Shown here: piece by piece, positions 3,781-43,054 of the stretch
How positions within the stretch are numbered: the first letter of the stretch is position 1
How the letters are laid out: each line of letters begins with the position of its first letter
From: Oscillospiraceae bacterium
Lineage (GTDB): Bacteria; Bacillota; Clostridia; Oscillospirales; Ruminococcaceae
DNA: 63,524 nucleotides
Assembly (NCBI GenBank): GCA_017442085.1
Contig: JAFSAW010000074.1
Coordinates: 1-63,524, forward strand
Direction: 5' to 3'
Program-made: the position numbers and the translations under genes
Notes under the pieces: generated by a model
What the model saw: the letters and a program-made list of their open reading frames with translations, nothing else
Told to the model about the DNA's origin: nothing
The model's database searches: none

Positions 3781-4628
3781 TATTCTGCCTCCTTGCTGAA
3801 AAGGTTGCAGGCTGCTTCCCTTTTGCGTGTTTCAAATTCTTTATACATTGAAGAACGGCTGATAGCTTCGTCAAAATCCACCTTGTGACCGTCAAAGTCA
3901 GGGCCGTCAACGCAGGCAAACTGTGTTTTGCCGTCAACAGTAAGGCGGCAGCCACCGCACATACCTGTGCCGTCAACCATAACAGGATTCATTGACACTG
4001 TGGTTTTAATACCGTATTTTTCGGTAACTCTGCAGACAAATTTCATCATAACCAAAGGACCGATTGCAATAACCTCATCATACTGTTCGCCGCTGTTGAT
4101 AAGCGCTTCCAGCGCATTGGTAACAAGACCTTTTTCGCCATATGAGCCGTCGTCTGTCATAATAACCAGTTTATCACTTGCTGCCCTGAACTCATCTTCA
4201 AGTATAAGCAGGTCTTTATTTCTGAAACCTACAACACTGTGAACACAGCAGCCGTTTTCTTTAAGTTTTTTTGCAACAGGATAAGCAATTGCACAGCCCA
4301 CACCGCCGCCGATAACAGCAACTTTTTTAAGCCCGTCAAGCTGACTTGGTTTGCCCAAAGGGCCTGCAAAGTCACATATATTATCGTTTTCACATAGTGT
4401 GGCAAGTTCCATTGTGCCCTCGCCTACAAGCTGAAAAATAATTGTTACTGTACCGTTTTCTGCATCGTAGTCAGAAATTGTAAGCGGTATTCTCTCGCTG
4501 TCTTCCAATGCACGCAGAATAACAAACTGCCCCGGCTGTGCTTTTTTTGCAATCAGCGGTGCATCTATAACCATTTTGCAAACGGTTGGATTTAAAAAAT
4601 CTTTTTTAAGAATTTTGTACATAATCAA
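3780..4628 (-). CDS. nfnA: NfnA / SudB-type flavoprotein subunit (ferredoxin-NADP reductase-like, 2Fe-2S)
   Basis: 282-aa PyrK-like FAD/NAD-binding fold with a C-terminal Cys motif (GMCGGCRLTVDGKTQFACVDGP). Paired with nfnB. Confidence 0.8.
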   Translation of the reverse strand: MIMYKILKKDFLNPTVCKMVIDAPLIAKKAQPGQFVILRALEDSERIPLTISDYDAENGTVTIIFQLVGEGTMELATLCENDNICDFAGPLGKPSQLDGLKKVAVIGGGVGCAIAYPVAKKLKENGCCVHSVVGFRNKDLLILEDEFRAASDKLVIMTDDGSYGEKGLVTNALEALINSGEQYDEVIAIGPLVMMKFVCRVTEKYGIKTTVSMNPVMVDGTGMCGGCRLTVDGKTQFACVDGPDFDGHKVDFDEAISRSSMYKEFETRKREAACNLFSKEAE

Positions 4629-5421: not shown

Positions 5422-6309
5422 TCAGAAAATACCAGGTATTATATGCGCAAGCCATAAGCCTGTGGCAAAGCTGGCAAGGTTTGCGGCAAAGGCATATGCT
5501 GCAGCTTTACCCCGTTTTGCAGGTTTTGACGAAAACTTTTTAAGCAGTAGGCTGTATACAGCAGCTTCAATTGCAAAAACTGCAATTTCGAACAGTATAA
5601 AATAAAAAGTAAACGCCATTGAACCGCTGTTGTAATTAACAATATTGAGTGACACATTAAGCACTATCTGTGTGATAATATTTACCACTGCAATAAAAGT
5701 GAGGGTTTTCTTTTCGCGGTAACCAAACATAAACGCTATTGCAATTTCCAGCAGAATTGTTGCCACAATGCGCGCCGCAAGAGAAATTATTTCCCAGGTG
5801 AAGTCATAGCTTTTTTCTGCTTTCAGCATCTGCCCGGCATACATATCCGAAATAATATCCACTGTATAATAACTGTCAAAAGCGTATCTTTCGTAGATAT
5901 CACTCATAAAGTATATATCTGTTTCAGGAAAATAAAGCAGAATTTTAAATTTAGATGGCGGATAATATGTCCAGTCAAGCTGATGAGTTTCGGTGCAGTC
6001 CCATACTTCCTGCAGAAAATAATATCCGTCTTTGTCAACATAATCCGCAAAAGCCTGCCATATTTCTTTGCTGTAATTGTAGTGCTGCTCGTGCCCTGCA
6101 ACACCGTCCCAGGCCGATGACGGCCCCGTGGATTTGCGCTCTGAAAGCAAAGTTGCATAGTACACTGTGCCGTTTTCATATATTGTGCTGTCATTTACAC
6201 CATTAAAGGTTATATGTACCGACGGCTTTGGCCCGATATCTGCCGAAGCTGTAAACGCAAAGGAAAAGATAACTATAAAAGGTAATATTACAGATAAAAG
6301 TTTTTTCAT
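5422..6309 (-). CDS. Uncharacterised secreted-domain plus 4-5 TM membrane protein
   Basis: I place the start at ATG 6309 (MKKLLSVILPFIVIFSFAFTASA signal peptide, RBS AGGGTGAG). A Trp/Tyr-rich extracytoplasmic domain is followed by a C-terminal TM bundle. The longer track ORF to 6450 overlaps the upstream gene. Confidence 0.55.
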   Translation of the reverse strand: MKKLLSVILPFIVIFSFAFTASADIGPKPSVHITFNGVNDSTIYENGTVYYATLLSERKSTGPSSAWDGVAGHEQHYNYSKEIWQAFADYVDKDGYYFLQEVWDCTETHQLDWTYYPPSKFKILLYFPETDIYFMSDIYERYAFDSYYTVDIISDMYAGQMLKAEKSYDFTWEIISLAARIVATILLEIAIAFMFGYREKKTLTFIAVVNIITQIVLNVSLNIVNYNSGSMAFTFYFILFEIAVFAIEAAVYSLLLKKFSSKPAKRGKAAAYAFAANLASFATGLWLAHIIPGIF

Positions 6310-6314
6310 TTGGC

Positions 6315-6569
6315 TCACCCTTTCATCTTTTTTATTTTGCCTGCAAGTATAACAATATATCCTGCAAATATAACTGCTGACAAAACAACCAGACTGTATC
6401 TGCCTGTGCCAACACCTGCCCTGAACAGCAGAATGCACAGCCCCAGCCACAATGCTATTAAAAATACAGCCAGAACAATCTGTATAATCATCGGCACTTT
6501 TTTGCCTGCTGCCGCACTTACTGCACCATCAAGTATTATCTCAAGCACTAAAGTCAGCAAATTGTCCAT
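6315..6569 (-). CDS. Small 2-TM membrane protein (84 aa)
   Basis: RBS AAGAGGT upstream. Two hydrophobic helices. Tightly packed between its neighbours. Confidence 0.4.
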   Translation of the reverse strand: MDNLLTLVLEIILDGAVSAAAGKKVPMIIQIVLAVFLIALWLGLCILLFRAGVGTGRYSLVVLSAVIFAGYIVILAGKIKKMKG

Positions 6570-7641: not shown

Positions 7642-9057
7642 TTAATGACATACTATTACACCACCAAGCTTTGCCCCGATATTGGCTTTTGCCTGCAATG
7701 TTATCTCCATATCAAAATCCGGCCGCAGGATAATTATGCTGTCGCTGTAGCAAAGCATATATTCGTTTTGCGGTTCATCACCAAGATAAAGCTGATAGGC
7801 ATATTCTGCACCCCATTCTGATGCAGGTATTTCCACTGCTCTTTCAAAAATTTCCCATTCTTCGTAAGTTACACCAAAATTGCGCGGAAAATCTTTGAGC
7901 ATCTGTTTGTGTGCAAAATTGTATAAAAACGGTGCTTTTATCTTTACCAGTGTGTACTGCAAATCCGGCTGTTCAAGGTCGTCCATTCTGGGGCGCTGAT
8001 AGGCATTGTGCTTTGACATAATCAGGGATTCATCACCATACCAGCTGGTTGAGTAGCCATCGTAGTTGGTTTCGATAATATCTTCCACCCTCAAAGGCAG
8101 TTCATCGTCATAAACCTTCCACTGCATACCCTTGTATTCGTAGGTATAGGCAGCTTCCTTGTCAAACCAGCCTGCATCCATAACTTTGTTGGTAACAGTA
8201 AAAAGCAAAACACCTGTAACGCCAAATGCCATAACAATGGTTATAACTATTGTTGCCACCTTGTTTGCCGCAGCCGAAACCCTGAACCTTTTAAGCAGGT
8301 TGGAAAATCCCCACACCGCCATGGACATAACAGCCACAACGCAGGAAGATATAACCGCTATAAATGCAAATCTTGGCTCTATGGTTAACAGGAAAACCGC
8401 AAATATGGCCAGAACAAACCACATAAGTGCAATTTCTATTTTTCGGTATCCCTTTGTATCGGTAAAGCTGTTTGTTTCTTCAACAGCTTTTCGGGCCTTT
8501 TTGCGCCAGCTGAAGTAACCCAGAATTTCTATAAGGCACATTGCCAGCATAATGCTCCAGCAAAGTACCGAAAACAGGCTTGAGTTGCGGGACAGCCAGT
8601 CCAATGGGTCTGTGGAAAACTGCCACAGCTGAAGCAACAGCTGAAGCACACCGCAGGCGGTAAGTATATAAAAACTTGGCAGATAGCTCTTTTTAGCAGA
8701 TTTTTCAATAGTTTCCAATTCTGTCTGAGGGTCGGTTTCGATAGGTACAGGATTTTCTGTTTCGTTGTAAAAAATCTGCATCTGTGCATTGTTTGATGCA
8801 AGCTTCCAGCCCGTGTGCTCGCAAAGCTCCCAAAAGCTTTTTTGATTTTCGCCCGGTACAGGGTCAAAAATTGATGCCTCTGGGAAATATGTAACTGAAA
8901 AATGTATTTTCTGTGGCTCTGTGCGGCGGAATTTCCAGCCATAAGAAGATATTTTTTCCAGCATCCAGCCCTTTTGTGCCTGCTTTTCCAAAAAAGCCTG
9001 AATACCCGTGCGGTCAAAAAATGTAAACTGCGCAAAAACACGTTTTGTCTTTCTCAT
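7642..9057 (-). CDS. DUF2812 domain-containing membrane protein (PadR-associated)
   Basis: N-terminus MRKTKRVFAQFTFFDRTGIQAFLEKQAQKGWMLEK is typical of DUF2812. Central TM cluster. 4-nt overlap with the upstream padR. Confidence 0.7.
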   Translation of the reverse strand: MRKTKRVFAQFTFFDRTGIQAFLEKQAQKGWMLEKISSYGWKFRRTEPQKIHFSVTYFPEASIFDPVPGENQKSFWELCEHTGWKLASNNAQMQIFYNETENPVPIETDPQTELETIEKSAKKSYLPSFYILTACGVLQLLLQLWQFSTDPLDWLSRNSSLFSVLCWSIMLAMCLIEILGYFSWRKKARKAVEETNSFTDTKGYRKIEIALMWFVLAIFAVFLLTIEPRFAFIAVISSCVVAVMSMAVWGFSNLLKRFRVSAAANKVATIVITIVMAFGVTGVLLFTVTNKVMDAGWFDKEAAYTYEYKGMQWKVYDDELPLRVEDIIETNYDGYSTSWYGDESLIMSKHNAYQRPRMDDLEQPDLQYTLVKIKAPFLYNFAHKQMLKDFPRNFGVTYEEWEIFERAVEIPASEWGAEYAYQLYLGDEPQNEYMLCYSDSIIILRPDFDMEITLQAKANIGAKLGGVIVCH

Positions 9058-9377
9058 TGCTGTTCCCCCTCTTCAAATATATTTTTGTAGTCTGTAAGCT
9101 GAGCTTTAAGTCTCTCGATTTCTTTATCCAGCGTTTCTTTGCCTTTTGGTGATATTATATAACTGCGTCGGCGGCCCTCCACCTTTGTTTCTTCGATATA
9201 TCCTTCTTCCAGAAACTGTTCCAGAAGGTTGTAAAGGGTGCCCGACCCCACATTAACCCTGCCATTTGTCATTGCAGGCACTTTATCCAGTATATCCATA
9301 CCGCAGCATTCGTCCTTTAAACACAGCAGTATATAGAACATCTGCTCTGTAAGTGTGTGGAATTTGGCTCTTGGCAA
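9054..9377 (-). CDS. PadR family transcriptional regulator (108 aa, TTG start)
   Basis: wHTH with GTLYNLLEQFLEEGYI and a C-terminal coiled coil. GGGAGG RBS lies 8 nt upstream of TTG 9377. The track model from 9491 reads through the operator repeats. Confidence 0.8.
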   Translation of the reverse strand: MPRAKFHTLTEQMFYILLCLKDECCGMDILDKVPAMTNGRVNVGSGTLYNLLEQFLEEGYIEETKVEGRRRSYIISPKGKETLDKEIERLKAQLTDYKNIFEEGEQQ

Positions 9378-9391
9378 TGAAGACACCTCCC

Positions 9392-9451
9392 ATTCTCGAT
9401 ATTCGAGATTATTTTCACTTTCAGTATATTCTCGATATTCGAGATTGTCAA
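9392..9451 (-). promoter_or_regulatory. padR promoter with two 19-bp operator-like repeats
   Basis: Minus strand: TTGACA (9451-9446), 17 nt, TATACT (9428-9423). attctcgatattcgagatt occurs at 9392-9410 and 9428-9446, each with the inverted repeat TCTCGA-N3-TCGAGA. One copy fills the -35/-10 spacer; the other lies in the leader. Confidence 0.65.
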
Positions 9452-9645
9452 CAAAATTTTTATATTCACAATGCCGCTGCCGCATAAACACTTCTTATTT
9501 TGCATCAATTTATAAAACAGATTAAATGCAAATGTTTATAAAATATAATTCTGTACAAAACTTTATAACAAATAAAAGAGTTTTTAAGCAAAACGCTTAA
9601 TTTTAACTTTTTTGAAAAAAATCGCAAATTTTTTCCAAAAAACCC

Positions 9646-10102: not shown

Positions 10103-10810
10103 ATGATAAGAAGAATTATTAAAATTGACGAAGATAAATGCAACGGCTGTGGCCTTTGTGCCAATGCCTGCCACGAAGGTGCAATAGAAATGATTGACGG
10201 CAAAGCCAGACTTACAAGAGAAGATTATTGTGACGGATTGGGTGACTGTCTCCCTGCTTGTCCTACAGGTGCCATTACCTTTGAAGAACGTGAAGCCCCT
10301 GCCTATGACGAAGCTGCTGTGCTGGCTGCAAAGGCAAAAAAAGAAGAAAAACCTCTTGCCTGCGGATGCCCTGGTACTGCTGCAAAAACATTCAGACGAG
10401 ACAGCAGCCTTAATTCTGCCTGCGAAACAGCTTCTGCGGTAACAAGCCAGCTTACACAGTGGCCTGTGCAGATTAAGCTTCTGCCGATAAGAGCACCTTA
10501 TTATGACAATGCAAACCTGCTTGTTGCTGCCGACTGCACAGCATTTGCCTATGGCAATTTCCACAACGAGTTTATCCGCAACCACGTTACTGTTATAGGC
10601 TGTCCAAAGCTGGATATGGTTGACTACACTGAAAAGCTTACACAGATTATTGCAAATAATAATATAAAAAGTGTAAAGGTTGTAAGAATGGAAGTTCCTT
10701 GCTGCGGCGGCATTGAAAATGCTGTCAAACAGGCACTTATGGCCAGCGGCAAGTTTATTCCATGGCAGGTTGTGACAATCTCAACTGACGGCAGAATTAT
10801 TGACAGATAA
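10103..10810 (+). CDS. 4Fe-4S dicluster domain protein with Cys-rich C-terminal domain
   Basis: CNGCGLCANACHEGA and CDGLGDCLPACPTGA ferredoxin motifs, plus C-terminal GCPKLD and EVPCCGG motifs. Function unknown. Confidence 0.7.
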   Translation: MIRRIIKIDEDKCNGCGLCANACHEGAIEMIDGKARLTREDYCDGLGDCLPACPTGAITFEEREAPAYDEAAVLAAKAKKEEKPLACGCPGTAAKTFRRDSSLNSACETASAVTSQLTQWPVQIKLLPIRAPYYDNANLLVAADCTAFAYGNFHNEFIRNHVTVIGCPKLDMVDYTEKLTQIIANNNIKSVKVVRMEVPCCGGIENAVKQALMASGKFIPWQVVTISTDGRIIDR

Positions 10811-10873
10811 TATCAGACTAAAAAACAAAAACTTCGGAATGATAACTCATCCGAAGCTTTTTTGTTATAATAA

Positions 10874-11704
10874 TCAGATTAAATCCGGCAGCTGGCAGTA
10901 TTCGCACAGCTGTACAAACATCTCGCTGTATTTATTAAGCATAAAATCCGACGCCTTGCTTTTCAGTATAGCTGTTTCGTCGCTGTATTCAGGAATGGAG
11001 ATAACAATATTTACACCGCTGCCAAACTGTGACTGCATAAGGATTGTGCCCCCTGCCTGATTTACCGCCTGTTTTGCAATATACAGACCTATGCCAAGCT
11101 TTGTGCTTATTTCACCGTCATTGTAAGGGTCTGAGGAATAAAACGGCTCGAACACTCTGCCGATTATTTCCGGCTTTATACCTTTGGAATTGTCACGGTA
11201 TGTCAGTACACATCTGCCGTTTTCCCTTTTAAGTTCAACAGATACCTGAACATCGTCTTCTTTGCGGTATTCAAAACTGTTCAGCAGTATATTGAACAGT
11301 GCCATACTCAGCAAAGGCTGACTGCCCATAATAATACAGCCGCCGTCAACATAGCAGTTCAGTGAATAATATGCCGGCAGCACCATCTGTGAACTTTGAA
11401 ACGCATTTTTTACCAACTGTGAAAAATCTATTGCTGTCTTTTCGTACTGATAACCGCTTTGAAGCTTTGACACCGCAGTAAGATTGTTTACACATTTAAT
11501 TATAGAATATGTGCGTCTGTATACAGCATTCAGATTTTCCAGTGCTGACTCGGTATTTGCACTGCTGATATTATCAGCCATAATCGGCAGTGAAGCAAAT
11601 ATATTTGCAACAGGCTCTCTCAGCTGATAGTTTACAATGTCAATGTACTCGATAAATTTTTCTGAAGCTGTTTGATTGTTTTGCTTTATTTCTTTTTCGG
11701 GCAT
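10874..11704 (-). CDS. Histidine-kinase-like protein lacking any histidine (DHp-like plus HATPase_c; Tyr at H-box position)
   Basis: N box LFNILLNSFEY, G1-like RDNSKGI, F box VFEPFY, G2 LGIGLYIAKQ. The H-box-aligned segment reads NYQLREPV. Start at ATG 11704 (AAAGGTG RBS) rather than the track start at 11797. Confidence 0.75.
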   Translation of the reverse strand: MPEKEIKQNNQTASEKFIEYIDIVNYQLREPVANIFASLPIMADNISSANTESALENLNAVYRRTYSIIKCVNNLTAVSKLQSGYQYEKTAIDFSQLVKNAFQSSQMVLPAYYSLNCYVDGGCIIMGSQPLLSMALFNILLNSFEYRKEDDVQVSVELKRENGRCVLTYRDNSKGIKPEIIGRVFEPFYSSDPYNDGEISTKLGIGLYIAKQAVNQAGGTILMQSQFGSGVNIVISIPEYSDETAILKSKASDFMLNKYSEMFVQLCEYCQLPDLI

Positions 11705-11716
11705 AGCAGACACCTT

Positions 11717-11733
11717 TTCGACATTTTTCGACA
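11717..11733 (-). promoter_or_regulatory. Tandem Spo0A-box-like repeat (TGTCGAA x2, 10-bp period)
   Basis: Minus strand TGTCGAAAAATGTCGAAAAGGTG, immediately upstream of and abutting the RBS of the HK-like gene. It matches the 0A-box consensus TGTCGAA. Confidence 0.4.
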
Positions 11734-11950
11734 AATAGTTGTTATTTATCATTTTATAATATATATATTTTTTTGTAAAGTATAAAGTATTGTGCAATAT
11801 TATTACTTATTTATGACATTATGGTGTAAATTGCCTTTTGCGCTTTACTAAAGCAAAAAATTGTTGTATAATTAAATTTGTCAGATAATTTAACAAAATA
11901 ATATGGTTTAAAAGTACAAATTTAAGGGTGATATTTTAATCGCTTAAATG

Positions 11951-11979
11951 TTGACTGAAAACCGCAAATCGGGTATCAT
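11951..11979 (+). promoter_or_regulatory. Candidate gap promoter
   Basis: TTGACT (11951-11956), 17 nt, TATCAT (11974-11979). A second TTGACA...TATATT candidate lies at about 12000-12026. Confidence 0.5.
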
Positions 11980-12018
11980 ATATACAGTAAGTTAATTTTT
12001 TGACAATCTTTAAATTAA

Positions 12019-13071
<1,053 letters not shown>

Positions 13072-28983: not shown

Positions 28984-30465
28984 TTATTTTGGTTTTTTGT
29001 ACACTACTTTTTTGGTATCATTTTTTGTTTTCGATACTTTCGGCTGTGCTGCAGCAAATGTCTTTTTATCCGGCAGCTCTGGCTGTTTCAGAACAATATC
29101 TTCTTTTCTTTCAGATTTTAAAGCTGTTTCTTTTATTTTTACTGATTTTTCCTTTTTTGCCCCGAATAGAGAACGTTTTTTATCCGCCTTTGTTTCTTCT
29201 GCCTGCGGCACGTCATACTGCGAGGTGTCCTCACCTCTGAACATACTTTTAAGCATATCATATTCCGGTGCGGTTTCGTCCAGCTTTGGTGCTGCAAATC
29301 TTTTGAAAGAACGTGTCTCGCTGAGTATTCCCTGGGGCTGCGGTACGGATATTTCGGTTTTTGTGTCTGAGCCGAAAAGTTCTGAGAACATTTCGTGTTT
29401 TAAAACTTCATCTTCTGCATTTTCATTAAGAACAACTTTTTCTGCAAGGTATTCTGCAGATGTATCATTTTGCTGAATATGTTCAGATTTTTCTTCTGCA
29501 AAATCATCAAACATCTGTGCCAGTTCTGCCCCTGCAAATGTATCCACAAAGCCTTTTTCCTGATTATTGCTTTCTGCTTTTAAAAAAGTCTCTGTATGCT
29601 GTACAACTCTATCCTTTTCCTGCACTGCATTTTTTTCTTTTTCAGCGGTTTCTTCAGGTGCTTCAAATCTTTTTGCTTCAATTTTCTTTTTAGCTTTGGA
29701 TATCTCTTTTTTATCCGGTATTGCCGAAACCGCATTGTCAAAGGCGTAAACACCAAACAGTGCAACAGCTATCTTCATAAGCAGATACACAAGACTCTGC
29801 CCACCATCGATGATATAGCAGATTATATCCGCAAGGCTCATCATTGAACACACTGCAAATGACAGCATACCCGCAACATATATCATCATTCGGGAAAACT
29901 TTGACGGAACATATACATTTTTAAGCACAGTAAGCATAAAAGCTATTATGCACATATAGGACAGTACCTTGGTGAGAAACTGTGTGTTATGGTAGGTAAA
30001 CACATTAAATGTAACCACATCCATACACAGTCCCGCCGCAAATGCAAGCAGCAGTACCATAACAAGATAATCGCTTTTCTTTTTGCCAAGACCTGCCCCT
30101 GCCATAATCAAAAGTGCCATACCGCCTGCAATAAAAAACGGTGCCTCAACCTTGTATGGAGCTGCCAGAATGCCTGCCACAGCCATTGCTGCACCTGCAA
30201 TAAAAGCGGTGTATTTTGAGGTGTGTGAATAATAAGGTTCAACCACTTTGTACTGGCTGAAAATGATTATACCGCAGCACAGCGTGATAACCGCCACCAG
30301 TGCAAGTATATACGGGTTCATAACAACACCGCCCACAAGCAGAAACCCTGTGGCCGCATCTGTTAAGTTCAGTATTTCATAAACACGGCCTGCAAGAATT
30401 GCTGCCGATATCAGACTTAATAAAACAGTGAGGGTAAGTGACATAATCATTATCCTTTTAAACAT
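28984..30465 (-). CDS. Polytopic membrane protein with a roughly 250-aa Lys/Glu-rich disordered C-terminal tail
   Basis: About 7-8 TM helices, then low-complexity charged sequence to the stop. Start uncertain: ATG 30465, 30450 or 30444. The track start at 30504 is TTG. Confidence 0.55.
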   Translation of the reverse strand: MFKRIMIMSLTLTVLLSLISAAILAGRVYEILNLTDAATGFLLVGGVVMNPYILALVAVITLCCGIIIFSQYKVVEPYYSHTSKYTAFIAGAAMAVAGILAAPYKVEAPFFIAGGMALLIMAGAGLGKKKSDYLVMVLLLAFAAGLCMDVVTFNVFTYHNTQFLTKVLSYMCIIAFMLTVLKNVYVPSKFSRMMIYVAGMLSFAVCSMMSLADIICYIIDGGQSLVYLLMKIAVALFGVYAFDNAVSAIPDKKEISKAKKKIEAKRFEAPEETAEKEKNAVQEKDRVVQHTETFLKAESNNQEKGFVDTFAGAELAQMFDDFAEEKSEHIQQNDTSAEYLAEKVVLNENAEDEVLKHEMFSELFGSDTKTEISVPQPQGILSETRSFKRFAAPKLDETAPEYDMLKSMFRGEDTSQYDVPQAEETKADKKRSLFGAKKEKSVKIKETALKSERKEDIVLKQPELPDKKTFAAAQPKVSKTKNDTKKVVYKKPK

Positions 30466-30562
30466 ATAATTTTTAGTTAATTCATAGTATGTATTGTATA
30501 CCAAATATTATAAAAAGGCAACTGCGGCTTATCTGCGGTTGTTTAAAAACGTGAGGATTATT

Positions 30563-31582
30563 ATGAAAAAATTTATAGGAATTTTTATATTTTTATTCTG
30601 TATAAACGCCTTTGTGCCTGTAGTATATTACCACATTTATTACAGCGACGCCCTGCGTCAGTTTACAGAATCCGAAATGCCAGAATCCACAGACGATTTT
30701 TTGCAGGAGAACAGCGAAAGCAATAACCTGACTGCAGAAACTGACACCAAATACAATCTGTACAACCTTGCCACCCAGGAAATGTGCACAATGGACCGCA
30801 CTGCCTTTCTGATTGGCAGCGCCGCCTGCGAAATGCCTGCAAGCTACAGCGAAGAAGCTATAAAGGCTCAGATGATTGCCTGCCACAGCTATTACATATA
30901 CTGCACTGAAAACGGCGTTCCGAGTGAAGATATGAACCTGAGCTTTGACGAAAGATATATGAAAAAATATGCCTCCAAACAGCGGCTACAGGAATACTGG
31001 GGTATGAGTTTTAACGAGTACTACGAAAAGTTTCTGCGGTGCGCTGATGATGTGAGCGATATCATTCTTAAATACAACGGAAAACCTGCACTTACGCCAT
31101 ACTATGCCGTATCCTGCGGCAAAACCCAGAGCAGCGAAGCCGAATGGGGCACTTATGTCCCCTATCTTGACTGTGTGGACAGCAAGGAAGATGCCCTGAG
31201 TGATGATTATCTTAAGGTTACAACATACAGTGTGCAGGATATGTACGACCGTTTTATGACATATTTTACAGGTTTTGAACTGAACCGCGAACATCCCGAA
31301 GAATGGTTTGGAGATACAGTTTATAATCAGTCAGGATATGTTACAACTATAGATGTTGCGGACATAAAAATAACAGGCAGAGAGTTCCGCAACTGTTTTG
31401 AGCTGCCCTCTGCCTGTTTTATGATATTTTATGAAAATGAAGAATTTTCCATAGCAACCAAAGGCTACGGACACGGTGTAGGCCTGAGCCAGTTTGGTGC
31501 AAACACTATGGCGGAAAACGGAAAAAGCTGCAGCGAAATATTGCAGCATTATTTCCCCGGCACTGTTATGGATAAAATTTAA
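30563..31582 (+). CDS. spoIID: Stage II sporulation protein D (SpoIID/LytB family lytic transglycosylase)
   Basis: Signal-anchor MKKFIGIFIFLF. GYGHGVGLSQFGA signature near the C-terminus. Confidence 0.85.
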   Translation: MKKFIGIFIFLFCINAFVPVVYYHIYYSDALRQFTESEMPESTDDFLQENSESNNLTAETDTKYNLYNLATQEMCTMDRTAFLIGSAACEMPASYSEEAIKAQMIACHSYYIYCTENGVPSEDMNLSFDERYMKKYASKQRLQEYWGMSFNEYYEKFLRCADDVSDIILKYNGKPALTPYYAVSCGKTQSSEAEWGTYVPYLDCVDSKEDALSDDYLKVTTYSVQDMYDRFMTYFTGFELNREHPEEWFGDTVYNQSGYVTTIDVADIKITGREFRNCFELPSACFMIFYENEEFSIATKGYGHGVGLSQFGANTMAENGKSCSEILQHYFPGTVMDKI

Positions 31583-34607: not shown

Positions 34608-35801
34608 ATGGCTGGTTTGGGCAAAAAAACAGTAGAAGATATCAATGTTAAAGGCAAAAAATGTATCGTTCGCTGTGACTTCAATGTTCCTATGAGTGAT
34701 GGTGTTATCACAGATGACAAACGTATCCGTGAAGCACTTAAAACAGTTAAATACCTTAAAGAAAACGGCGCAAAAATTATTCTTTGCAGCCATATGGGCA
34801 GACCAAAGGGCGAATTCAATATGAAATATTCTCTCGCACCTGTTGCTGAAAGAATCAGCGAACTTATGGGTTGCCCTGTTGCAATGGCAACAGATGTTAT
34901 CGGCGAAGATGCAAAAGCAAAAGCTGCTGCACTTGGCGAAGGAGAAATTCTTCTTCTTGAAAACCTGCGTTTCCACAAGGAAGAAGAAAAAAATGCACCT
35001 GAATTTGCAAAAGCACTTGCAGACTTTGCAGAAATCTATGTAAATGATGCATTTGGCACAGCACACCGTGCACACGCTTCCACAGCAGGTATCGCTGATT
35101 ATCTGCCTGCAGTTTGCGGCTATCTTATCCAGAAAGAAATCGATGTTATGGGCAAAGCTCTCAACGACCCTGCAAGACCATTTGTTGCTATCCTTGGCGG
35201 CGCTAAAGTAAGTGACAAAATCGGTGTTATCGAAAACCTTATCGACAAAGTTGACAGCCTTGTTATCGGCGGCGGTATGGCTTATACATTCTTTAAAGCA
35301 AAAGGCTGGACAGTTGGCGATTCCATCTGTGAAGATGACAAAGTTGAACTTGCAAAAGAACTTATGGCTAAAGCTGAAGCAAAAGGCGTAAAAATGCTTT
35401 TGCCTGTTGACACAGTTGTTGGCAAAGAATTTAAAGAAGACACAGAACATATGACAGTTGACTCCAGTGCTATTCCTGATTCCTGGCAGGGCCTTGACAT
35501 TGGTCCTAAATCCGTTGAACTGTTCAGCGATGCAATCAAAAATGCAGAAACAGTTGTATGGAATGGTCCTATGGGCGTATTTGAATTTGAAGCATTTGCA
35601 GTTGGCACAAAAGCAGTTGCAAAAGCAGTTGCAGAAAGTGGCGCAATCAGCATCATCGGCGGCGGCGACAGTGCTGCAGCAGTTGAACAGCTTGGCTATG
35701 CAGACAAGATGACACACATCTCCACAGGCGGCGGTGCTTCCCTTGAATTCCTTGAAGGCCTTGAACTTCCTGGCATTGCAGCACTTAACGACAAAGAATA
35801 A
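34608..35801 (+). CDS. pgk: Phosphoglycerate kinase
   Basis: 397 aa. [17 protein letters not shown] and GGGDSAAA motifs. Confidence 0.95.
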
Positions 35802-35906
35802 TTTTTGTCGTTACACTCTTAAAAAAAAGATAGCGGCAGTATATTCTGCCGCTATTATTACTTAAAATACAATGATATGTTTTTAACATATCCAAGGAGA
35901 ATTATT

Positions 35907-36671
35907 ATGGATAAATCCAAAAGACAGGTTGTTATTGCAGGCAACTGGAAGATGAACAAAAATGCAGAAGAAACAAAGGCTCTGCTTGCTGAAATGACAC
36001 AGACAATAAAAGATGCTGACTGCAAAGTATTGCTTTGCGTGCCTGCAATCAACATCAGCACAGCAGTTGAAGCAACAAAAAACAGCATTATCGAAATTGG
36101 CGCACAGAACTGCCACTGGGCTGCAAACGGCGCTTATACAGGCGAAATCAGCGCAGATATGCTTAAATGCTTTGGCATTAAATATGCAATTATCGGCCAC
36201 AGCGAAAGAAGACAGTATTTTGGCGAAACAGACAAAACTGTAAATATGCGCGCTCTTGCCTGCCACGAAAACGGCATCACACCAATTATCTGTGTTGGTG
36301 AAAACCTTGAAGAACGCGAAAAAGATATCACAAAAGATGTTATCAGAACACAGATTACAGAAGGTCTTGCAAACTTTACAAAAGAACAGCTGCACAACAC
36401 AATTATCGCTTACGAACCTGTATGGGCAATCGGCACAGGCAAAACAGCAACTGCACAGCAGGCTGAAGAAGTTTGTGCATATATCAGAGAACTGCTTGGC
36501 GAAATGTTCTGCCCTGTATGTGCACAGAAGGTTACAATCCAGTACGGCGGCAGTATGAATGCAGGCAATGCAAAAGAACTTCTCGCTATGCCAAATATCG
36601 ACGGTGGCCTTATCGGCGGTGCATCCCTTAAAGCAGCAGACTTTAACACAATTGTTGAAAGTGCAGAATAA
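35907..36671 (+). CDS. tpiA: Triose-phosphate isomerase
   Basis: AGNWKMN, GHSERR and AYEPVWAIGTG motifs. Start at MDKSKRQ (GGAGAA RBS). Confidence 0.95.
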   Translation: MDKSKRQVVIAGNWKMNKNAEETKALLAEMTQTIKDADCKVLLCVPAINISTAVEATKNSIIEIGAQNCHWAANGAYTGEISADMLKCFGIKYAIIGHSERRQYFGETDKTVNMRALACHENGITPIICVGENLEEREKDITKDVIRTQITEGLANFTKEQLHNTIIAYEPVWAIGTGKTATAQQAEEVCAYIRELLGEMFCPVCAQKVTIQYGGSMNAGNAKELLAMPNIDGGLIGGASLKAADFNTIVESAE

Positions 36672-36683
36672 GAGGTAAAACAG

Positions 36684-38198
36684 ATGAAAAAACCATTGGT
36701 ACTTTGTATTATGGACGGCTATGCCTTTGCCGACAAAACAGAAGGCAACGCAATCTGCGCAGCAAAAACACCAAGACTTGATGAAATTTTTGCAAAATAT
36801 CCTACTGTAACTCTGGGCGCAAGCGGTATGAGTGTTGGCCTGCCTGACGGTCAGATGGGCAACAGCGAGGTTGGCCATACAAATATGGGTGCAGGCCGCA
36901 TTGTTTATCAGGAACTTACAAGAATTACAAAATCCATAAAGGACGGCGATTTCTTTGCCAACGAAGCTATGACAAAAGCTATCGGCAAAGCAAAGGAAAA
37001 CGACAAGGCTGTTCACGTTATGGGGCTTATGAGTGACGGCGGCGTACACAGCCACATCGAACACTGTCTTGCAGTTGTTGAAATGTGCAAACGTATGGGT
37101 GTTGAAAAGGTTTTTGTGCATGCATTTATGGACGGCCGTGACGTAAGCCCTACAAGCGGTGCAGATTTTCTGCGTCAGCTTAACAAAGAAATGGGCGCAA
37201 TCGGCGTTGGCAAAATAGGTACTGTTCACGGCAGATTTTACATTATGGACCGTGACAAACGCTGGGACCGTGTTGAAACAGCATATAAAACACTTGTTTA
37301 CGGCGAAGGTGAGGTTTGCCCTGACGCTGCTGTAAAGCTGGAAGAAAACTATAAAAACGATGTTACAGACGAATTTACAGTGCCGTTTGTGGTTACACCT
37401 GACAGCAATATCAAACAGGGTGACAGCGTGATTTTCTTTAACTTCCGCCCTGACAGAGCAAGAGAAATCACAAGAAGCCTTGTGGACACAGACTTTGACG
37501 GTTTTGCAAGAAAAGACAACAACCTTTTGCTTAACTATGTATGCTTTACACAGTATGATGCAACAATGCCTAACGTTGATGTTGCATTTAAACCACAGAG
37601 CCTTGACAATACTTTGGGTGAATATCTCTCCAAAATGGGCAAAACCCAGCTGAGAATCGCCGAGACAGAAAAATATGCCCACGTTACATTCTTCTTTAAC
37701 GGCGGTGTTGAAGCTGTAAGCGAAGGCGAAGACAGAGCACTTATCAACAGTCCTAAAGTTGCAACCTACGACCTTAAACCTGAGATGAGCGCTTATGAAG
37801 TGACCGAAGAAATGCTGACTCGCCTTGACAGTGGCAAATACGATGTGGTTATCCTCAACTTTGCAAACTGTGATATGGTTGGCCATACAGGTGTTTTCAG
37901 TGCAGCTGTTAAAGCTGTGGAAACTGTTGACGAATGTGTTGGCAAGGTGCTGGACAAAACAATGGAAATGGGCGGTGTGTTCCTTTTGACTGCCGACCAC
38001 GGCAATGCAGACAAACTGCTGGACGAAGACGGCAGTGTGTTTACAGCACACACAACTAACCCTGTTCCGTTTACTGTTTGCGGCTATGAATGTGCACTGC
38101 ACGAAGACGGCGTACTTGCAGATATTGCGCCAACAATGCTGCAGATTCTTGGCCTTGAACAGCCGGAAGAAATGACAGGCAAGTCACTTATTAAATAA
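36684..38198 (+). CDS. gpmI: 2,3-bisphosphoglycerate-independent phosphoglycerate mutase
   Basis: 504 aa. ILDG-type start (CIMDGYA), GNSEVGH, ADHGNA motifs. Confidence 0.95.
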   Translation: MKKPLVLCIMDGYAFADKTEGNAICAAKTPRLDEIFAKYPTVTLGASGMSVGLPDGQMGNSEVGHTNMGAGRIVYQELTRITKSIKDGDFFANEAMTKAIGKAKENDKAVHVMGLMSDGGVHSHIEHCLAVVEMCKRMGVEKVFVHAFMDGRDVSPTSGADFLRQLNKEMGAIGVGKIGTVHGRFYIMDRDKRWDRVETAYKTLVYGEGEVCPDAAVKLEENYKNDVTDEFTVPFVVTPDSNIKQGDSVIFFNFRPDRAREITRSLVDTDFDGFARKDNNLLLNYVCFTQYDATMPNVDVAFKPQSLDNTLGEYLSKMGKTQLRIAETEKYAHVTFFFNGGVEAVSEGEDRALINSPKVATYDLKPEMSAYEVTEEMLTRLDSGKYDVVILNFANCDMVGHTGVFSAAVKAVETVDECVGKVLDKTMEMGGVFLLTADHGNADKLLDEDGSVFTAHTTNPVPFTVCGYECALHEDGVLADIAPTMLQILGLEQPEEMTGKSLIK

Positions 38199-38313: not shown

Positions 38314-39288
38314 TTATTCTTGTTCAATTACTTCTGACCATACATTACCTTCGATTTCTCTCATATCTGTAAGTTCAAAATTTTCTGATAAATATTCCGC
38401 TAAATACCTGGAAATCTTTTTTGCTCCTACATCGTTCAGATGCCCTTCGTCAGCAAAATCTGTTTTAACATCTATTCCTATTTCATTCACCTTTTCAAAT
38501 AAATCTATATATGTACACCCTCTGTCTGCAGCATATTCGGTAAGGGCTTTATTATAGTTGTTCCCATAATTGTATGGGGCTGTAAAAAGAATTAATTCTA
38601 TATTGTTTTCTTTACAGCGTTCAACTATATTGTCAAGCACCCTTTGTCCTTCTTCAACCACCGGAATCTGATGTATTATTTCAGGATCCCATATTTCAAT
38701 CTCTGTTACACCTTTTAATGGATAATACCCCATTTGAGAATACATAGTTTCCACAGCTTCTTTTGAATTAAAATTCCAGTTACTTACATCGCTCCAGTTT
38801 TCATGAAAAATATATATAGGAAAATAATAGGAAACATATTTTTTCCAGTCTTTCTGAAAACACGACTCGAGATAGTCTTTCTTTTCCGGAACACCTTTTA
38901 TTTCTCGCGTATAATAAATTTCCCCCTCAAGCTCAACATCTATAAGCGGTTCTGTTCGCACACATTCTATGAGAATTACTTTGGGAGACTGGGTTTGTAA
39001 AGAATCGTAAACAAAAAGCTCTGTTGTGTTTATATGCTGCCAGCTGCTTGCATAGTTATATGCACCTACACCCCGATGCTTATACATTTCAATAGGATCG
39101 ATACTATTCCATGCGTGACTGGATCCGTATATCATTACCTCAACTGTATTTTCCGGTAATTTTTCAAAAGCCTTTTGGGTAGCTATACAACTATTAACAT
39201 TTTTAGTACCAATAAAATTTCCCCACCATTGTACCAAAATAAAAGTAATCACACCACACAAAATTGCTGCAAACAATTTTTTACGCAT
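38314..39288 (-). CDS. SGNH-like hydrolase / acyl-transfer partner of the MBOAT protein (DltD/AlgX-like role), membrane-anchored
   Basis: N-terminal TM helix, GSSH block I-like (IYGSSHAWNS), DxxH block V-like (ADEGHLND). ATG 39288 with AGAGGT RBS, 14 nt after the MBOAT stop. Confidence 0.6.
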   Translation of the reverse strand: MRKKLFAAILCGVITFILVQWWGNFIGTKNVNSCIATQKAFEKLPENTVEVMIYGSSHAWNSIDPIEMYKHRGVGAYNYASSWQHINTTELFVYDSLQTQSPKVILIECVRTEPLIDVELEGEIYYTREIKGVPEKKDYLESCFQKDWKKYVSYYFPIYIFHENWSDVSNWNFNSKEAVETMYSQMGYYPLKGVTEIEIWDPEIIHQIPVVEEGQRVLDNIVERCKENNIELILFTAPYNYGNNYNKALTEYAADRGCTYIDLFEKVNEIGIDVKTDFADEGHLNDVGAKKISRYLAEYLSENFELTDMREIEGNVWSEVIEQE

Positions 39289-39302
39289 ATTTTTACCTCT
39301 TA

Positions 39303-40802
39303 TCAAAACTGAAAATAAATAAAGGCTGCTTTATCAACACCAACACCATATACTCCAAATGTAAGCACAGCAACAATACTGAATGATACAAATAACACCT
39401 GGAACAATCCTGATTGATTCATAATAAAATCTCTAATCTTTATACCTTTGGTTTTGCAGTAATCCGCAAAAATTATCAGTATAATAGATATTATCATAAA
39501 CCAAAAATTTTTCTCATCCAATCCACATTCATATAATGAGCCATCAAATAATACTTTTGCTGTCTCACAATTTAATATTCTTTCTATAATTTTTACTGCA
39601 GATGTAAAAGAATCTGCTCTAAAAAAAATCCATGAAAAATCTACCATTATAAATGTTATAACAGTCTGAAATAATCTGTGACTAAAATTGTTTATATTTA
39701 TTTTATATTTTTCCACAACCTTAGCTCTTAATGGTGCTGTCACTTCTTCCATTATCTGATACAGGCCATTGATTCCTCCCCAAGCTATAAAAGATATTTT
39801 TGCACCATGCCATAATCCACTTACAAGGAAAACTATCATTTTATTTATGTATTTTCTAAATTTGCCTTTTCTGCTTCCCCCCAAAGGAATATACAGATAA
39901 TCTTTGAACCATGATGTCAAAGAGATATGCCATCTGCGCCAAAAATCTGATACTGATGTGGCAAAATAAGGTGCATCAAAGTTCTCCATCAAATTTATTC
40001 CTAAAAATTTTGCTGCACCTATGGCGATGATAGAATATCCGGAAAAGTCACAATATATCTGTATAGCAAACAAAATTGTAGCTACTATAAGATATGTTCC
40101 GTCAAAGTTATAATAATTACCATATATATTATCTACAAATATGGCAATTCTATCTGCTACTACAATTTTAAGAAACCAGCCCCATAACATAAGTAAAAAG
40201 CCTTCATAAGCTTTATCAAAATCAAATCTTTTAGGTTCTGCAAGCTGACATAACAAATTTTTTGAACGTTCTATTGGGCCTGCTACAAGCTGTGGAAAGA
40301 AGGACACAAACAAAGCATATCTGAAAAAGTTTTTTTCTGCATATATATCATCTCTGTACACATCCATTGTATAACTTAATGCCTGGAAAGTATAAAATGA
40401 AATTCCTACCGGTAATACTATATCAAATGCAGGTGTATTAAGCTGTACGGAAAATACTGAAAAAATATCTTGTAAAATGCCTAATGCAAAATTTATATAT
40501 TTAAAATAAAACAATATTGCCAAATTTATTGCAAAACTCAATAATACAATAATTTTTTTACATATTACTCTGGTGTCTTCTTTCGCAAAATCATATCTTT
40601 TAACTTTTTCAATGAATATACCACTAAAGAAAGTAATTATTGTAGAAAACAAAATTAAAACAGCATATTTTGCATTCCAACACATATAAAAATAATAACT
40701 TGCTATTAACAGCCATATGTTTTTTATTTTTTTAGGTACAGCAAAATATATTATAAGTACAACTGGAAAAAAAATTAAAAACTCCAGTGAATTAAATAAC
40801 AT
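39303..40802 (-). CDS. MBOAT family O-acyltransferase (AlgI/DltB-like)
   Basis: 499-aa polytopic protein. WRRWHISL and SGLWHG signatures. Confidence 0.85.
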   Translation of the reverse strand: MLFNSLEFLIFFPVVLIIYFAVPKKIKNIWLLIASYYFYMCWNAKYAVLILFSTIITFFSGIFIEKVKRYDFAKEDTRVICKKIIVLLSFAINLAILFYFKYINFALGILQDIFSVFSVQLNTPAFDIVLPVGISFYTFQALSYTMDVYRDDIYAEKNFFRYALFVSFFPQLVAGPIERSKNLLCQLAEPKRFDFDKAYEGFLLMLWGWFLKIVVADRIAIFVDNIYGNYYNFDGTYLIVATILFAIQIYCDFSGYSIIAIGAAKFLGINLMENFDAPYFATSVSDFWRRWHISLTSWFKDYLYIPLGGSRKGKFRKYINKMIVFLVSGLWHGAKISFIAWGGINGLYQIMEEVTAPLRAKVVEKYKININNFSHRLFQTVITFIMVDFSWIFFRADSFTSAVKIIERILNCETAKVLFDGSLYECGLDEKNFWFMIISIILIIFADYCKTKGIKIRDFIMNQSGLFQVLFVSFSIVAVLTFGVYGVGVDKAAFIYFQF

Positions 40803-42574: not shown

Positions 42575-43054
42575 TTATATAGATATGCTTTCTTTAAATT
42601 TAATAAGTTTATTCCTTATCTCACAGATTTCATTATTGCTTACAACAACTTCATCCTTATATACAATATCATCAGTCCCCCTGTACTCTGCCAAGACAAA
42701 TCTGACAGATTTATCTGTGCATATCATAAACAGATAATATCCTGCATCTTCAAGTTCCTGCAAAGGAAGCTGAAAGCGGTAATCACCGTTTTCAAAGGCG
42801 GTTATGTACATCTGCTCTGCTATCTTCTGCGAAGACAGCTTAAACAGGCTTTCATTTTCAGGCATGGCAACAAGGGGTGAGCTGTCGCTCAGAATGCTGT
42901 TTATCTCACCGTCCACCGCCACTGTCCTGAGTTCTTTTGGATACTGAATGCCGTTTATATAAAGCTGCATAATACCATTGGTGCATCCGCAGGTGCTCCA
43001 ATCGGATACTTTTTCAAATATAAAAGCAATTTTATCCGGGTTTCCTGCAACCAT
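42575..43054 (-). CDS. Hypothetical cytoplasmic protein (159 aa)
   Basis: Strong GGAGGAG RBS. Ends 25 nt before the radical SAM start. No motif I recognise. Confidence 0.45.
   Translation of the reverse strand: MVAGNPDKIAFIFEKVSDWSTCGCTNGIMQLYINGIQYPKELRTVAVDGEINSILSDSSPLVAMPENESLFKLSSQKIAEQMYITAFENGDYRFQLPLQELEDAGYYLFMICTDKSVRFVLAEYRGTDDIVYKDEVVVSNNEICEIRNKLIKFKESISI

Follow-up and report, generated by a model that had tools for sequence, protein, structure and literature searches.

A conserved histidine-kinase-like family with a free acceptor position, encoded back-to-back with gap and often downstream of a predicted Spo0A-type operator in Oscillospiraceae

Introduction

To our knowledge, pseudo-histidine-kinases are known from a few cases only, such as DivL, NifL and RetS. 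DivL, a membrane-anchored alphaproteobacterial protein of Caulobacter crescentus with multiple PAS domains, carries a fixed Tyr in place of the phospho-accepting His, binds DivK~P and signals without a His phosphorelay. NifL, the flavin-containing proteobacterial anti-activator that is co-transcribed with its target nifA, acts by protein–protein contact, with a nucleotide bound in its GHKL domain and no phosphotransfer, and RetS, like PtpB of C. difficile, is a regulator of histidine kinase (HK) fold that acts without the need for a conserved His. Other GHKL proteins that act without phospho-His are SpoIIAB/RsbW and PDK/BCK, among which SpoIIAB and RsbW lack the helical hairpin of the dimerization and histidine phosphotransfer (DHp) domain. 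Here, we analyzed a stretch of 63,524 nucleotides (contig JAFSAW010000074.1 of the Oscillospiraceae bacterium assembly GCA_017442085.1; hereafter the window), in which one gene encodes a histidine-free protein of HK-like fold, lies back-to-back with gap, the gene of glyceraldehyde-3-phosphate dehydrogenase (GAPDH), and is preceded by a tandem repeat of the consensus box of the sporulation regulator Spo0A.

In C. difficile, PtpB represses sporulation, with its His being dispensable, and PtpA is its proposed partner in a hetero-oligomer, while the Ruminococcaceae/Oscillospiraceae are devoid of a phosphorelay and the control of Spo0A in these bacteria is uncharacterised (PMC11210211). The 0A box has TGTCGAA as its core, in which the contacted bases are G2, C4 and G5 (PMC3485338). 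The active form of Spo0A~P is a dimer, whose 25–30-bp footprints contain a pair of boxes separated by 3 bp, with TGTtGAA among the variants (PMC2731898). Boxes that lie downstream of a promoter form a roadblock at abrB and at the Pv promoter of spo0A (PMC12090719).

Results

Fold and catalytic residues

Judged from its sequence, the product of the gene under study is a conserved pseudo-histidine-kinase, which retains an adenine/Mg2+ pocket and has lost the chemistry of phosphotransfer. The features of the gene and of its protein are as follows:

10874–11704, minus strand: coding sequence of the His-less HK-like protein (276 aa plus stop; start ATG at 11704)
11711–11716, minus strand: ribosome-binding site (RBS) AAGGTG, 6 nt before the ATG at 11704 (from the sequence)
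11459–11668, minus strand: DHp-like helical hairpin, residues 13–82 (AlphaFold2 helices; Foldseek matches to HK853, WalK and DivL; weak HisKA match)
11609–11632, minus strand: degenerate H box N-Y-Q-L-R-E-P-V, residues 25–32, with the Tyr26 codon at 11627–11629 (phmmer alignment to HK853)
10991–11437, minus strand: catalytic and ATP-binding (CA; Bergerat/GHKL) domain, residues 90–238 (HATPase_c; alignments; comparison with 124 canonical HKs)
10877–10990, minus strand: family-specific C-terminal tail, residues 239–276, KS..DF.LNKYS..FVQLCEYC.LPDL (alignments)

The open reading frame (ORF) is as an earlier note on this DNA had described it, with an RBS-supported ATG at 11704 and 276 codons; upstream starts, corresponding to gene calls of 292 and 307 aa, were rejected because most homologues begin at the aligned Met and the RBS precedes ATG 11704. 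The protein has no transmembrane segment and no sensor domain, and no response-regulator gene is found near it in the window, in line with what had been noted before. Its membership of the GHKL/HATPase_c group is indicated by the HATPase_c profile (63.6 bits, E 2.7e-17, residues 129–239; Pfam cut-off 26.4) and by the presence of the N-box Asn, the G1 Asp and the G2 glycines, when HisKA reaches 12.6 bits over residues 27–84, below the Pfam cut-off of 26.9. Pfam and NCBIfam hold no family-specific model, and the generic HK equivalogs stay far under their cut-offs.

The N-terminal region can nonetheless be regarded as DHp-like despite this sub-threshold score. Indeed, an AlphaFold2 model computed from 29 homologues (pLDDT 84.5, pTM 0.84) consists of two helices (residues 13–47 and 51–82) forming a hairpin, then a CA domain of the alpha/beta type and finally a tail that is short but structured, and Foldseek aligned this model with HK853 at a TM-score of 0.80, with WalK and DivL (rank 19) also among the matches. 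The succession of a DHp hairpin and a CA domain is the layout of canonical HisKA kinases, and HK853 is also the best match by sequence in the PDB (phmmer, E 2.5e-14), in an alignment that puts the N, G1, F and G2 boxes at the positions assigned to them earlier. DivL is likewise recovered by sequence (PDB 4q20; E 8e-6), as is RetS (E 1e-4).

In the alignment with HK853, the segment IVNYQLREPV faces NISHELRTPL, such that Tyr26 does occupy the position of the phospho-accepting His260. To see what this position holds in the family, we considered 56 close homologues (37–99% identity) obtained from a search of 5.8 billion proteins, whose named sources are all metagenome-assembled genomes (MAGs) of Ruminococcaceae or Oscillospiraceae. 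Ten residue types share the acceptor column: Tyr in 26 homologues, Ile in 6, Val in 5, Phe, Arg and Gln in 4 each, His in 3, Ser in 2, and Cys and Met in 1 each; in the wider family the column is mostly Ala, Ser, Asn or Gly, with His in 4 and Tyr in 8 of 95 sequences. The orthologues are thus far from uniformly carrying His, and neither Tyr nor the absence of His is fixed among them. Such hypervariability indicates that neither His nor Tyr is under selection and that Tyr26 has no special meaning, which removes the DivL-like reading of a meaningful Tyr-for-His substitution: the two proteins have in common a DHp plus CA fold, a non-His acceptor and, presumably, signalling without a His phosphorelay, but the Tyr that is fixed in DivL is precisely what varies here, so that the analogy fails on its defining feature.

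The complete lack of His, which a residue count upholds (0 His and 0 Trp in 276 residues), is likewise incidental rather than a family trait, since homologues carry 0–7 His. With His making up 2.0% of residues in the long ORFs of the window, the probability of finding none in 276 aa is ~0.004, and among the window's ORFs of 200 aa or more, just one other is devoid of it.

Around this free acceptor position, conservation is strong: in a 29-sequence alignment with 31 invariant columns, R29 and P31 never vary, and the conservation of Q27 and E30 reaches 90% or more. The canonical HisKA kinase/phosphatase motif comprises an acidic residue at H+1 and Thr or Asn at H+4; in the window protein these positions hold Gln (Q27) and Glu (E30), and the acceptor His and a HisKA score above the gathering threshold are wanting too. 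It could be proposed that the Q-L-R-E-P surface makes the protein a dedicated phosphatase of a phosphorylated response regulator, e.g. Spo0A~P, without any His. The conserved surface and the fact that HK phosphatase activity does not strictly need His speak for this proposal, as does the precedent of PtpA and PtpB, which are sporulation inhibitors in C. difficile (PMC11210211). We regard it as quite improbable all the same, as the E/D-x-x-T/N motif is absent and H+4 varies in the wider family (Glu, Asp, Thr, Gln, Ser, Asn, Lys).

The CA domain had been described as apparently intact, and this holds for the placement of its N, G1, F and G2 boxes and for N138, N142, D171, G175, G204 and G206, which are all invariant in the same alignment. 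It does not hold for two basic residues, K383 and R430 in HK853, which we take to be contacts of the ATP phosphates and which are replaced throughout the family. The N-box Lys is E145 here, being Asp or Glu in 51 of the 56 homologues as against Lys or Arg in 117 of 119 canonical HKs, and the Arg that follows the F box is S190 here, being Ser or Thr in the family as against Arg, Gln or Lys in 93 of 110 canonical HKs (these numbers being drawn from the 124 canonical HKs recovered by the same searches). Taken with the hypervariable acceptor column, these further replacements support the earlier view of an HK-like protein without conventional His autophosphorylation, namely a soluble HK-fold protein that is probably incapable of a conventional His phosphorelay. 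They also set it apart from PtpB and RetS, which keep the His, the canonical CA residues and transmembrane or sensor domains.

The retained pocket could alternatively serve an active kinase of the SpoIIAB/RsbW or PDK/BCK type, which would phosphorylate a Ser, Thr or Tyr of a partner, possibly GAPDH given that the gene adjoins gap, or the protein's own Ser260. The invariance of the N-box Asn, of the G1 Asp and Gly and of the G2 glycines fits such an activity, and so does that of the tail Ser across the wider family. Yet the presumed phosphate contacts are lost, with a reversal of charge at the N-box Lys, and no HATPase_c_2 or BCDHK domain was matched by Pfam in the window protein at E up to 10; besides, SpoIIAB and RsbW are HATPase_c_2 proteins of ~140–160 aa without a DHp hairpin, when this hairpin is present here. 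A non-His kinase accordingly appears about as doubtful as a phosphatase, both being weakened by the missing phosphatase motif and phosphate-contact residues.

The wider family and its C-terminal tail

An exhaustive profile search of 1.84 billion representatives showed that many proteins of 340–390 aa match the window protein through to its C-terminus. This wider family shares a degenerate H box, x-S-x-Q-[LMF]-R-x-P, the N, G1 and G2 motifs, a 'PYFS' Ser and a tail of the form A-D-Y-L-x-N-R-[FY]-S-P-V-Y-V-Q-L-C-x-x-C-x-L-P. Across a 58-member alignment, the H+3 Arg, the N-box Asn, the G1 Asp and Gly, the G2 glycines, one more Gly and the tail Ser are invariant, and just 8 of the 58 members match HisKA at E<0.01. 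A word-indexed search with the wide alignment was swamped by ordinary kinases and gained little.

The long form, modelled at a pLDDT of 91.5, begins with a PAS-like domain of ~100 aa, and its fold neighbours are PAS/LOV kinases and NifL (PDB 9qq6; Foldseek rank 46). The ancestral layout of the family is a PAS domain, a His-less DHp domain, a CA domain and a conserved C-terminal tail, of which the subfamily of the window is a PAS-less derivative. NifL resembles this layout in combining PAS and HK-like domains, with the difference that its partner gene adjoins nifL, whereas none adjoins the present family. DivL differs further by its multiple PAS domains, when these Oscillospiraceae proteins have one or none, a tail unique to them and a link to gap.

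In the subfamily of the window, Y259 and S260 of the tail are invariant, and the CxxC that precedes L-P is nearly so; the tail is modelled at a pLDDT of 74–91 in the window protein and of 89–97 in the long form. In a dimer, the CxxC would bring four Cys together and could form a metal or redox site. P0148, the one large canonical HK whose match reaches the tail region, proved not to share the tail. Together, the conserved DHp surface around the free acceptor and the conserved tail point to a conserved protein partner.

The sources annotate these proteins as 'HAMP domain-containing histidine kinase' or 'ATP-binding protein', the former being misleading. We found no description of the family in the literature searched or in family libraries: it is an undescribed, large and uncurated family of gut and rumen Oscillospiraceae. 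That the gene might be an orphan kinase in decay, or what is left of one that no longer functions, as the loss of His and the sub-threshold HisKA score could suggest, is next to impossible, with an ORF that is intact in more than 100 divergent homologues and whose invariant motifs, tail, promoter and synteny are kept. An isolated decayed allele, which the earlier note had named as a refuting case, is likewise rejected.

Promoter and tandem repeat

Upstream of the coding sequence, two further elements are found:

11717–11733, minus strand: tandem direct repeat TGTCGAA-AAA-TGTCGAA, i.e. two 0A boxes of consensus sequence, 3 bp apart and repeating every 10 bp (exact; TGTCGAAAAATGTCGAA)
11751–11779, minus strand: sigma-A-type promoter TTTACA-17-TAAAAT of the kinase-like gene (promoter scan; conservation across aligned loci)

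The repeat next to the RBS, reported earlier, is thus exact, and such a tandem is expected 0.01 times per window, when single TGTCGAA boxes are not enriched (5 found versus 6.3 expected). In most of the AT-rich lineages it is kept at the orthologous locus amid diverging surroundings (TGTCGACatttTGTCGAA, AGTCGAAtttTGTCGAA, TGTCGGAtttTGTCGAA, TGTTGAAtttTGTTGAA; and TGTCGTTtttTGTCGTAttcTGTCACA in the distant locus L033). At a 10-bp offset, 12 of 22 loci score at least 12/14, as compared with 0–1 loci at offsets of 7–9 or 11–14, and 17 of the 22 rank in the top 1% when set against the background of the locus itself; within the boxes, G2, C4 and G5 are the best-kept bases. The promoter is conserved as well, with a consensus of TTTACA-17-TAnAAT across loci in which CTTTACA and the -10 element stand out. 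The distance from the -10 element to the first box is narrow (11–25 nt in 13 loci), whereas that from the second box to the ATG is wide (12–71 nt), which indicates that the boxes belong to the promoter and not to the RBS. A coding explanation for the repeat was discarded, for the boxes fall in differing reading frames relative to the ATG among loci.

With a TGTCGAA core, a 3-bp spacing within the pair, 10-bp phasing and conservation in orthologous promoters, the repeat behaves as a conserved, putative Spo0A-type operator, as had been surmised. Its position downstream of the promoter predicts repression by Spo0A~P rather than activation. In this regard, the closest parallels are abrB and spo0A Pv of Bacillus subtilis, where 0A boxes lie just downstream of a sigma-A promoter (PMC12090719), as well as Spo0A-protected regions with paired boxes 3 bp apart (PMC2731898), the differences being that the gene regulated here would be a pseudo-kinase instead of a transition-state DNA-binding regulator and that the Spo0A site is a predicted one.

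Another reading of the repeat, which we deem rather improbable, is that it constitutes the operator of some other direct-repeat binder (e.g. of the OmpR/PhoB type) or an RNA element of the 5′ untranslated region. This would agree with its location in a transcribed region, with the distant variants TGTCGTT and TGTCACA (L033), which also resemble Pho-box-like repeats, and with the fact that spo0A itself was not encountered in the sequence analyzed (see Proposed role). On the other hand, the loci share a consensus that is exactly TGTCGAA, with 3 bp between the copies, the boxes go with the promoter and not with the RBS, and a search of Rfam with positions 10700–12150 returned nothing credible, the repeat matching no known RNA element. 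In addition, the best-kept bases are those that Spo0A contacts (PMC3485338).

Neighbourhood of gap

The elements on either side of the gene are:

12052–13071, plus strand: gap, encoding GAPDH, the divergent neighbour (tblastn across family loci)
11844–11979, plus strand: two promoter-like sites for gap, TTTACT-17-TATAAT and TTGACT-17-TATCAT (promoter scan)
10103–10810, strand opposite to the kinase-like gene: convergent gene of a Fer4 protein
10820–10856, minus strand: hairpin plus T-run terminator, cttcgga-11-tccgaag then tttttgtttttt, 3′ of the kinase-like coding sequence and common to the convergent Fer4 gene (read from the sequence, unlisted by the scan)

The neighbours named earlier, a convergent 4Fe-4S protein and a divergent gap, are therefore the right ones, but it is the latter alone that is conserved. 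A divergent gap was found by tblastn in 29 of 30 evaluable family loci, with GAPDH identities of 45–99%. It is present in every close-family locus fetched, where GAPDH is 84–99% identical to the copy of the window, in the distant loci L033–L035, L036, L037 (where the N-terminus of GAPDH is visible at the contig end) and L038, and in 5 of the 6 evaluable loci of a high-GC branch (L039, L041, L042, L044 and L045, the exception being L043), which was retrieved by a metagenome scan with a narrower alignment. The intergenic region measures 347 bp in the window and 315–371 bp in 18 close-family loci. No neighbour is conserved on the downstream side, where the window has Fer4, L001 a Glt symporter, L003 an unknown gene and L033 DegV.

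This association might mean that the protein acts on glycolysis, with its PAS and CA domains sensing a metabolite, redox state or nucleotide and regulating GAPDH or gap through a partner, the boxes then being a lineage-specific overlay. Besides the breadth of the synteny and the constant intergenic length, the PAS-like domain of the ancestral form and the absence of tandem boxes from most loci of the high-GC branch are consistent with such a role. We consider it a serious rival but nevertheless rather unlikely, given that the protein has no DNA-binding domain, that gap has two conserved promoters of its own 110–250 bp away and that synteny inside one bacterial family may be partly inherited.

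The region upstream of gap (11844–12051, plus strand) shows conservation of its own: both promoter-like sites, the block TGGTTTAAAAGTACAAATTT and the leader block CAGTAAGTTAATTTTTTGACAA are kept in 18 orthologous loci, and the region may therefore include an unknown operator. In L033, a single consensus box is found at 7700–7725, which reads TTTCGACAAA on the plus strand and TGTCGAA on that of gap, ~60 nt ahead of the start codon of gap; the 18 close loci show no box of this kind on the gap side. Since the operator-less cluster pgk-tpi-gpmI (34608–38198, plus strand) lies 22 kb away, gap is monocistronic here, when in L003 pgk, tpi and gpmI are found ~4 kb from gap. No cggR-like gene was detected among the ORFs of the window that were scanned.

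Proposed role

We tentatively propose, at somewhat less than even confidence, that the protein is a non-catalytic, nucleotide-binding pseudo-kinase regulator that is repressed by Spo0A~P and restrains the activation of Spo0A. According to this proposal, the gene would be transcribed during growth from its sigma-A-type promoter, back-to-back with gap, and its product would keep the DHp-plus-CA fold, presumably along with the dimer, and the adenine/Mg2+ pocket. The protein, possibly gated by a nucleotide, would use its conserved DHp surface or its C-terminal tail to bind a partner, most likely an orphan sporulation kinase or Spo0A itself, thereby holding back Spo0A activation. Conversely, the two 0A boxes, which are spaced for a Spo0A~P dimer and start ~10–20 nt after the predicted transcription start, suggest that Spo0A~P would most likely silence the gene through a roadblock of the kind found at abrB, which would close a double-negative feedback loop. 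The restraining step is put forward by analogy with DivL, NifL, RetS and PtpB.

Several observations weigh against this proposal. The kinase-like gene has no partner encoded nearby, and the first Gly of G1 is Ser in the subfamily of the window, which weakens the case for nucleotide binding, when the conserved pocket could, conversely, still support an unconventional catalysis. L008, L017 and L014 lack the tandem boxes, as do 4 of 6 loci of the high-GC branch; as the adjacency of gap is near-universal and the boxes are patchy, the core function may concern glycolysis and not sporulation. Across ~485 kb of analyzed loci, tblastn revealed no spo0A, its only matches being generic receiver domains in unrelated loci, and the family genomes are all uncultured MAGs in which nearby SpoIID-domain genes are the sole hint of sporulation. 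These SpoIID-domain genes are located at 30494–31582 (plus strand) in the window, at 10166–11149 in L003 and at 3937–4917 in L037, in the latter two loci being two genes downstream of the kinase-like gene.

The two associations may also be combined, in that the family could put a brake on sporulation that is coupled to glycolysis, or represent a novel type of regulator directed at GAPDH, which we see as distinctly unlikely. Under this scenario, an HK-fold protein free of any phosphorelay would be made beside gap during sugar-fuelled growth, would read nucleotide or redox state via its CA pocket, its CxxC tail and, ancestrally, its PAS domain, and would prevent Spo0A or its orphan kinases from becoming active up to the point where Spo0A~P turns the gene off; alternatively, the protein would modify GAPDH itself. 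If true, it would provide the first defined input to the initiation of sporulation in Oscillospiraceae/Ruminococcaceae.

Whichever its role, the family adds to the few pseudo-histidine-kinases cited above a large, conserved one from abundant gut and rumen Clostridia. In its signature, the acceptor position is free, the contacts to the phosphates are degraded, the adenine pocket is retained and a unique tail bears an invariant Ser and a CxxC. In the genome, it is strongly associated with two elements, namely gap and a putative operator of Spo0A type. Under the proposed restraint of Spo0A, the gene is a candidate node in the control of Spo0A in Ruminococcaceae/Oscillospiraceae, and its position hints at a link between glycolysis and sporulation.

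Other genes of the window

Among the remaining ORFs, those at 28984–30504 (minus strand, 506 aa) and 38314–39306 (minus strand, 330 aa) have no Pfam match at E<=1e-5, and that at 5422–6450 (minus strand, 342 aa) has none at E<=0.001. An Imm42 immunity-protein gene (42575–43054, minus strand; E 1e-19) adjoins a dUTPase gene, and none of the scanned ORFs is an obvious candidate for its toxin partner. At 7642–9491 (minus strand), the gene of a PadR-family regulator is followed by that of a 471-aa DUF2812 membrane protein, a typical pairing, with overlapping stop and start codons. Finally, the segment 22600–28723 (minus strand) carries a methylaspartate glutamate-fermentation cluster, comprising methylaspartate ammonia-lyase, the mutase E chain, MutL and a two-subunit fumarase/mesaconase-like hydratase.

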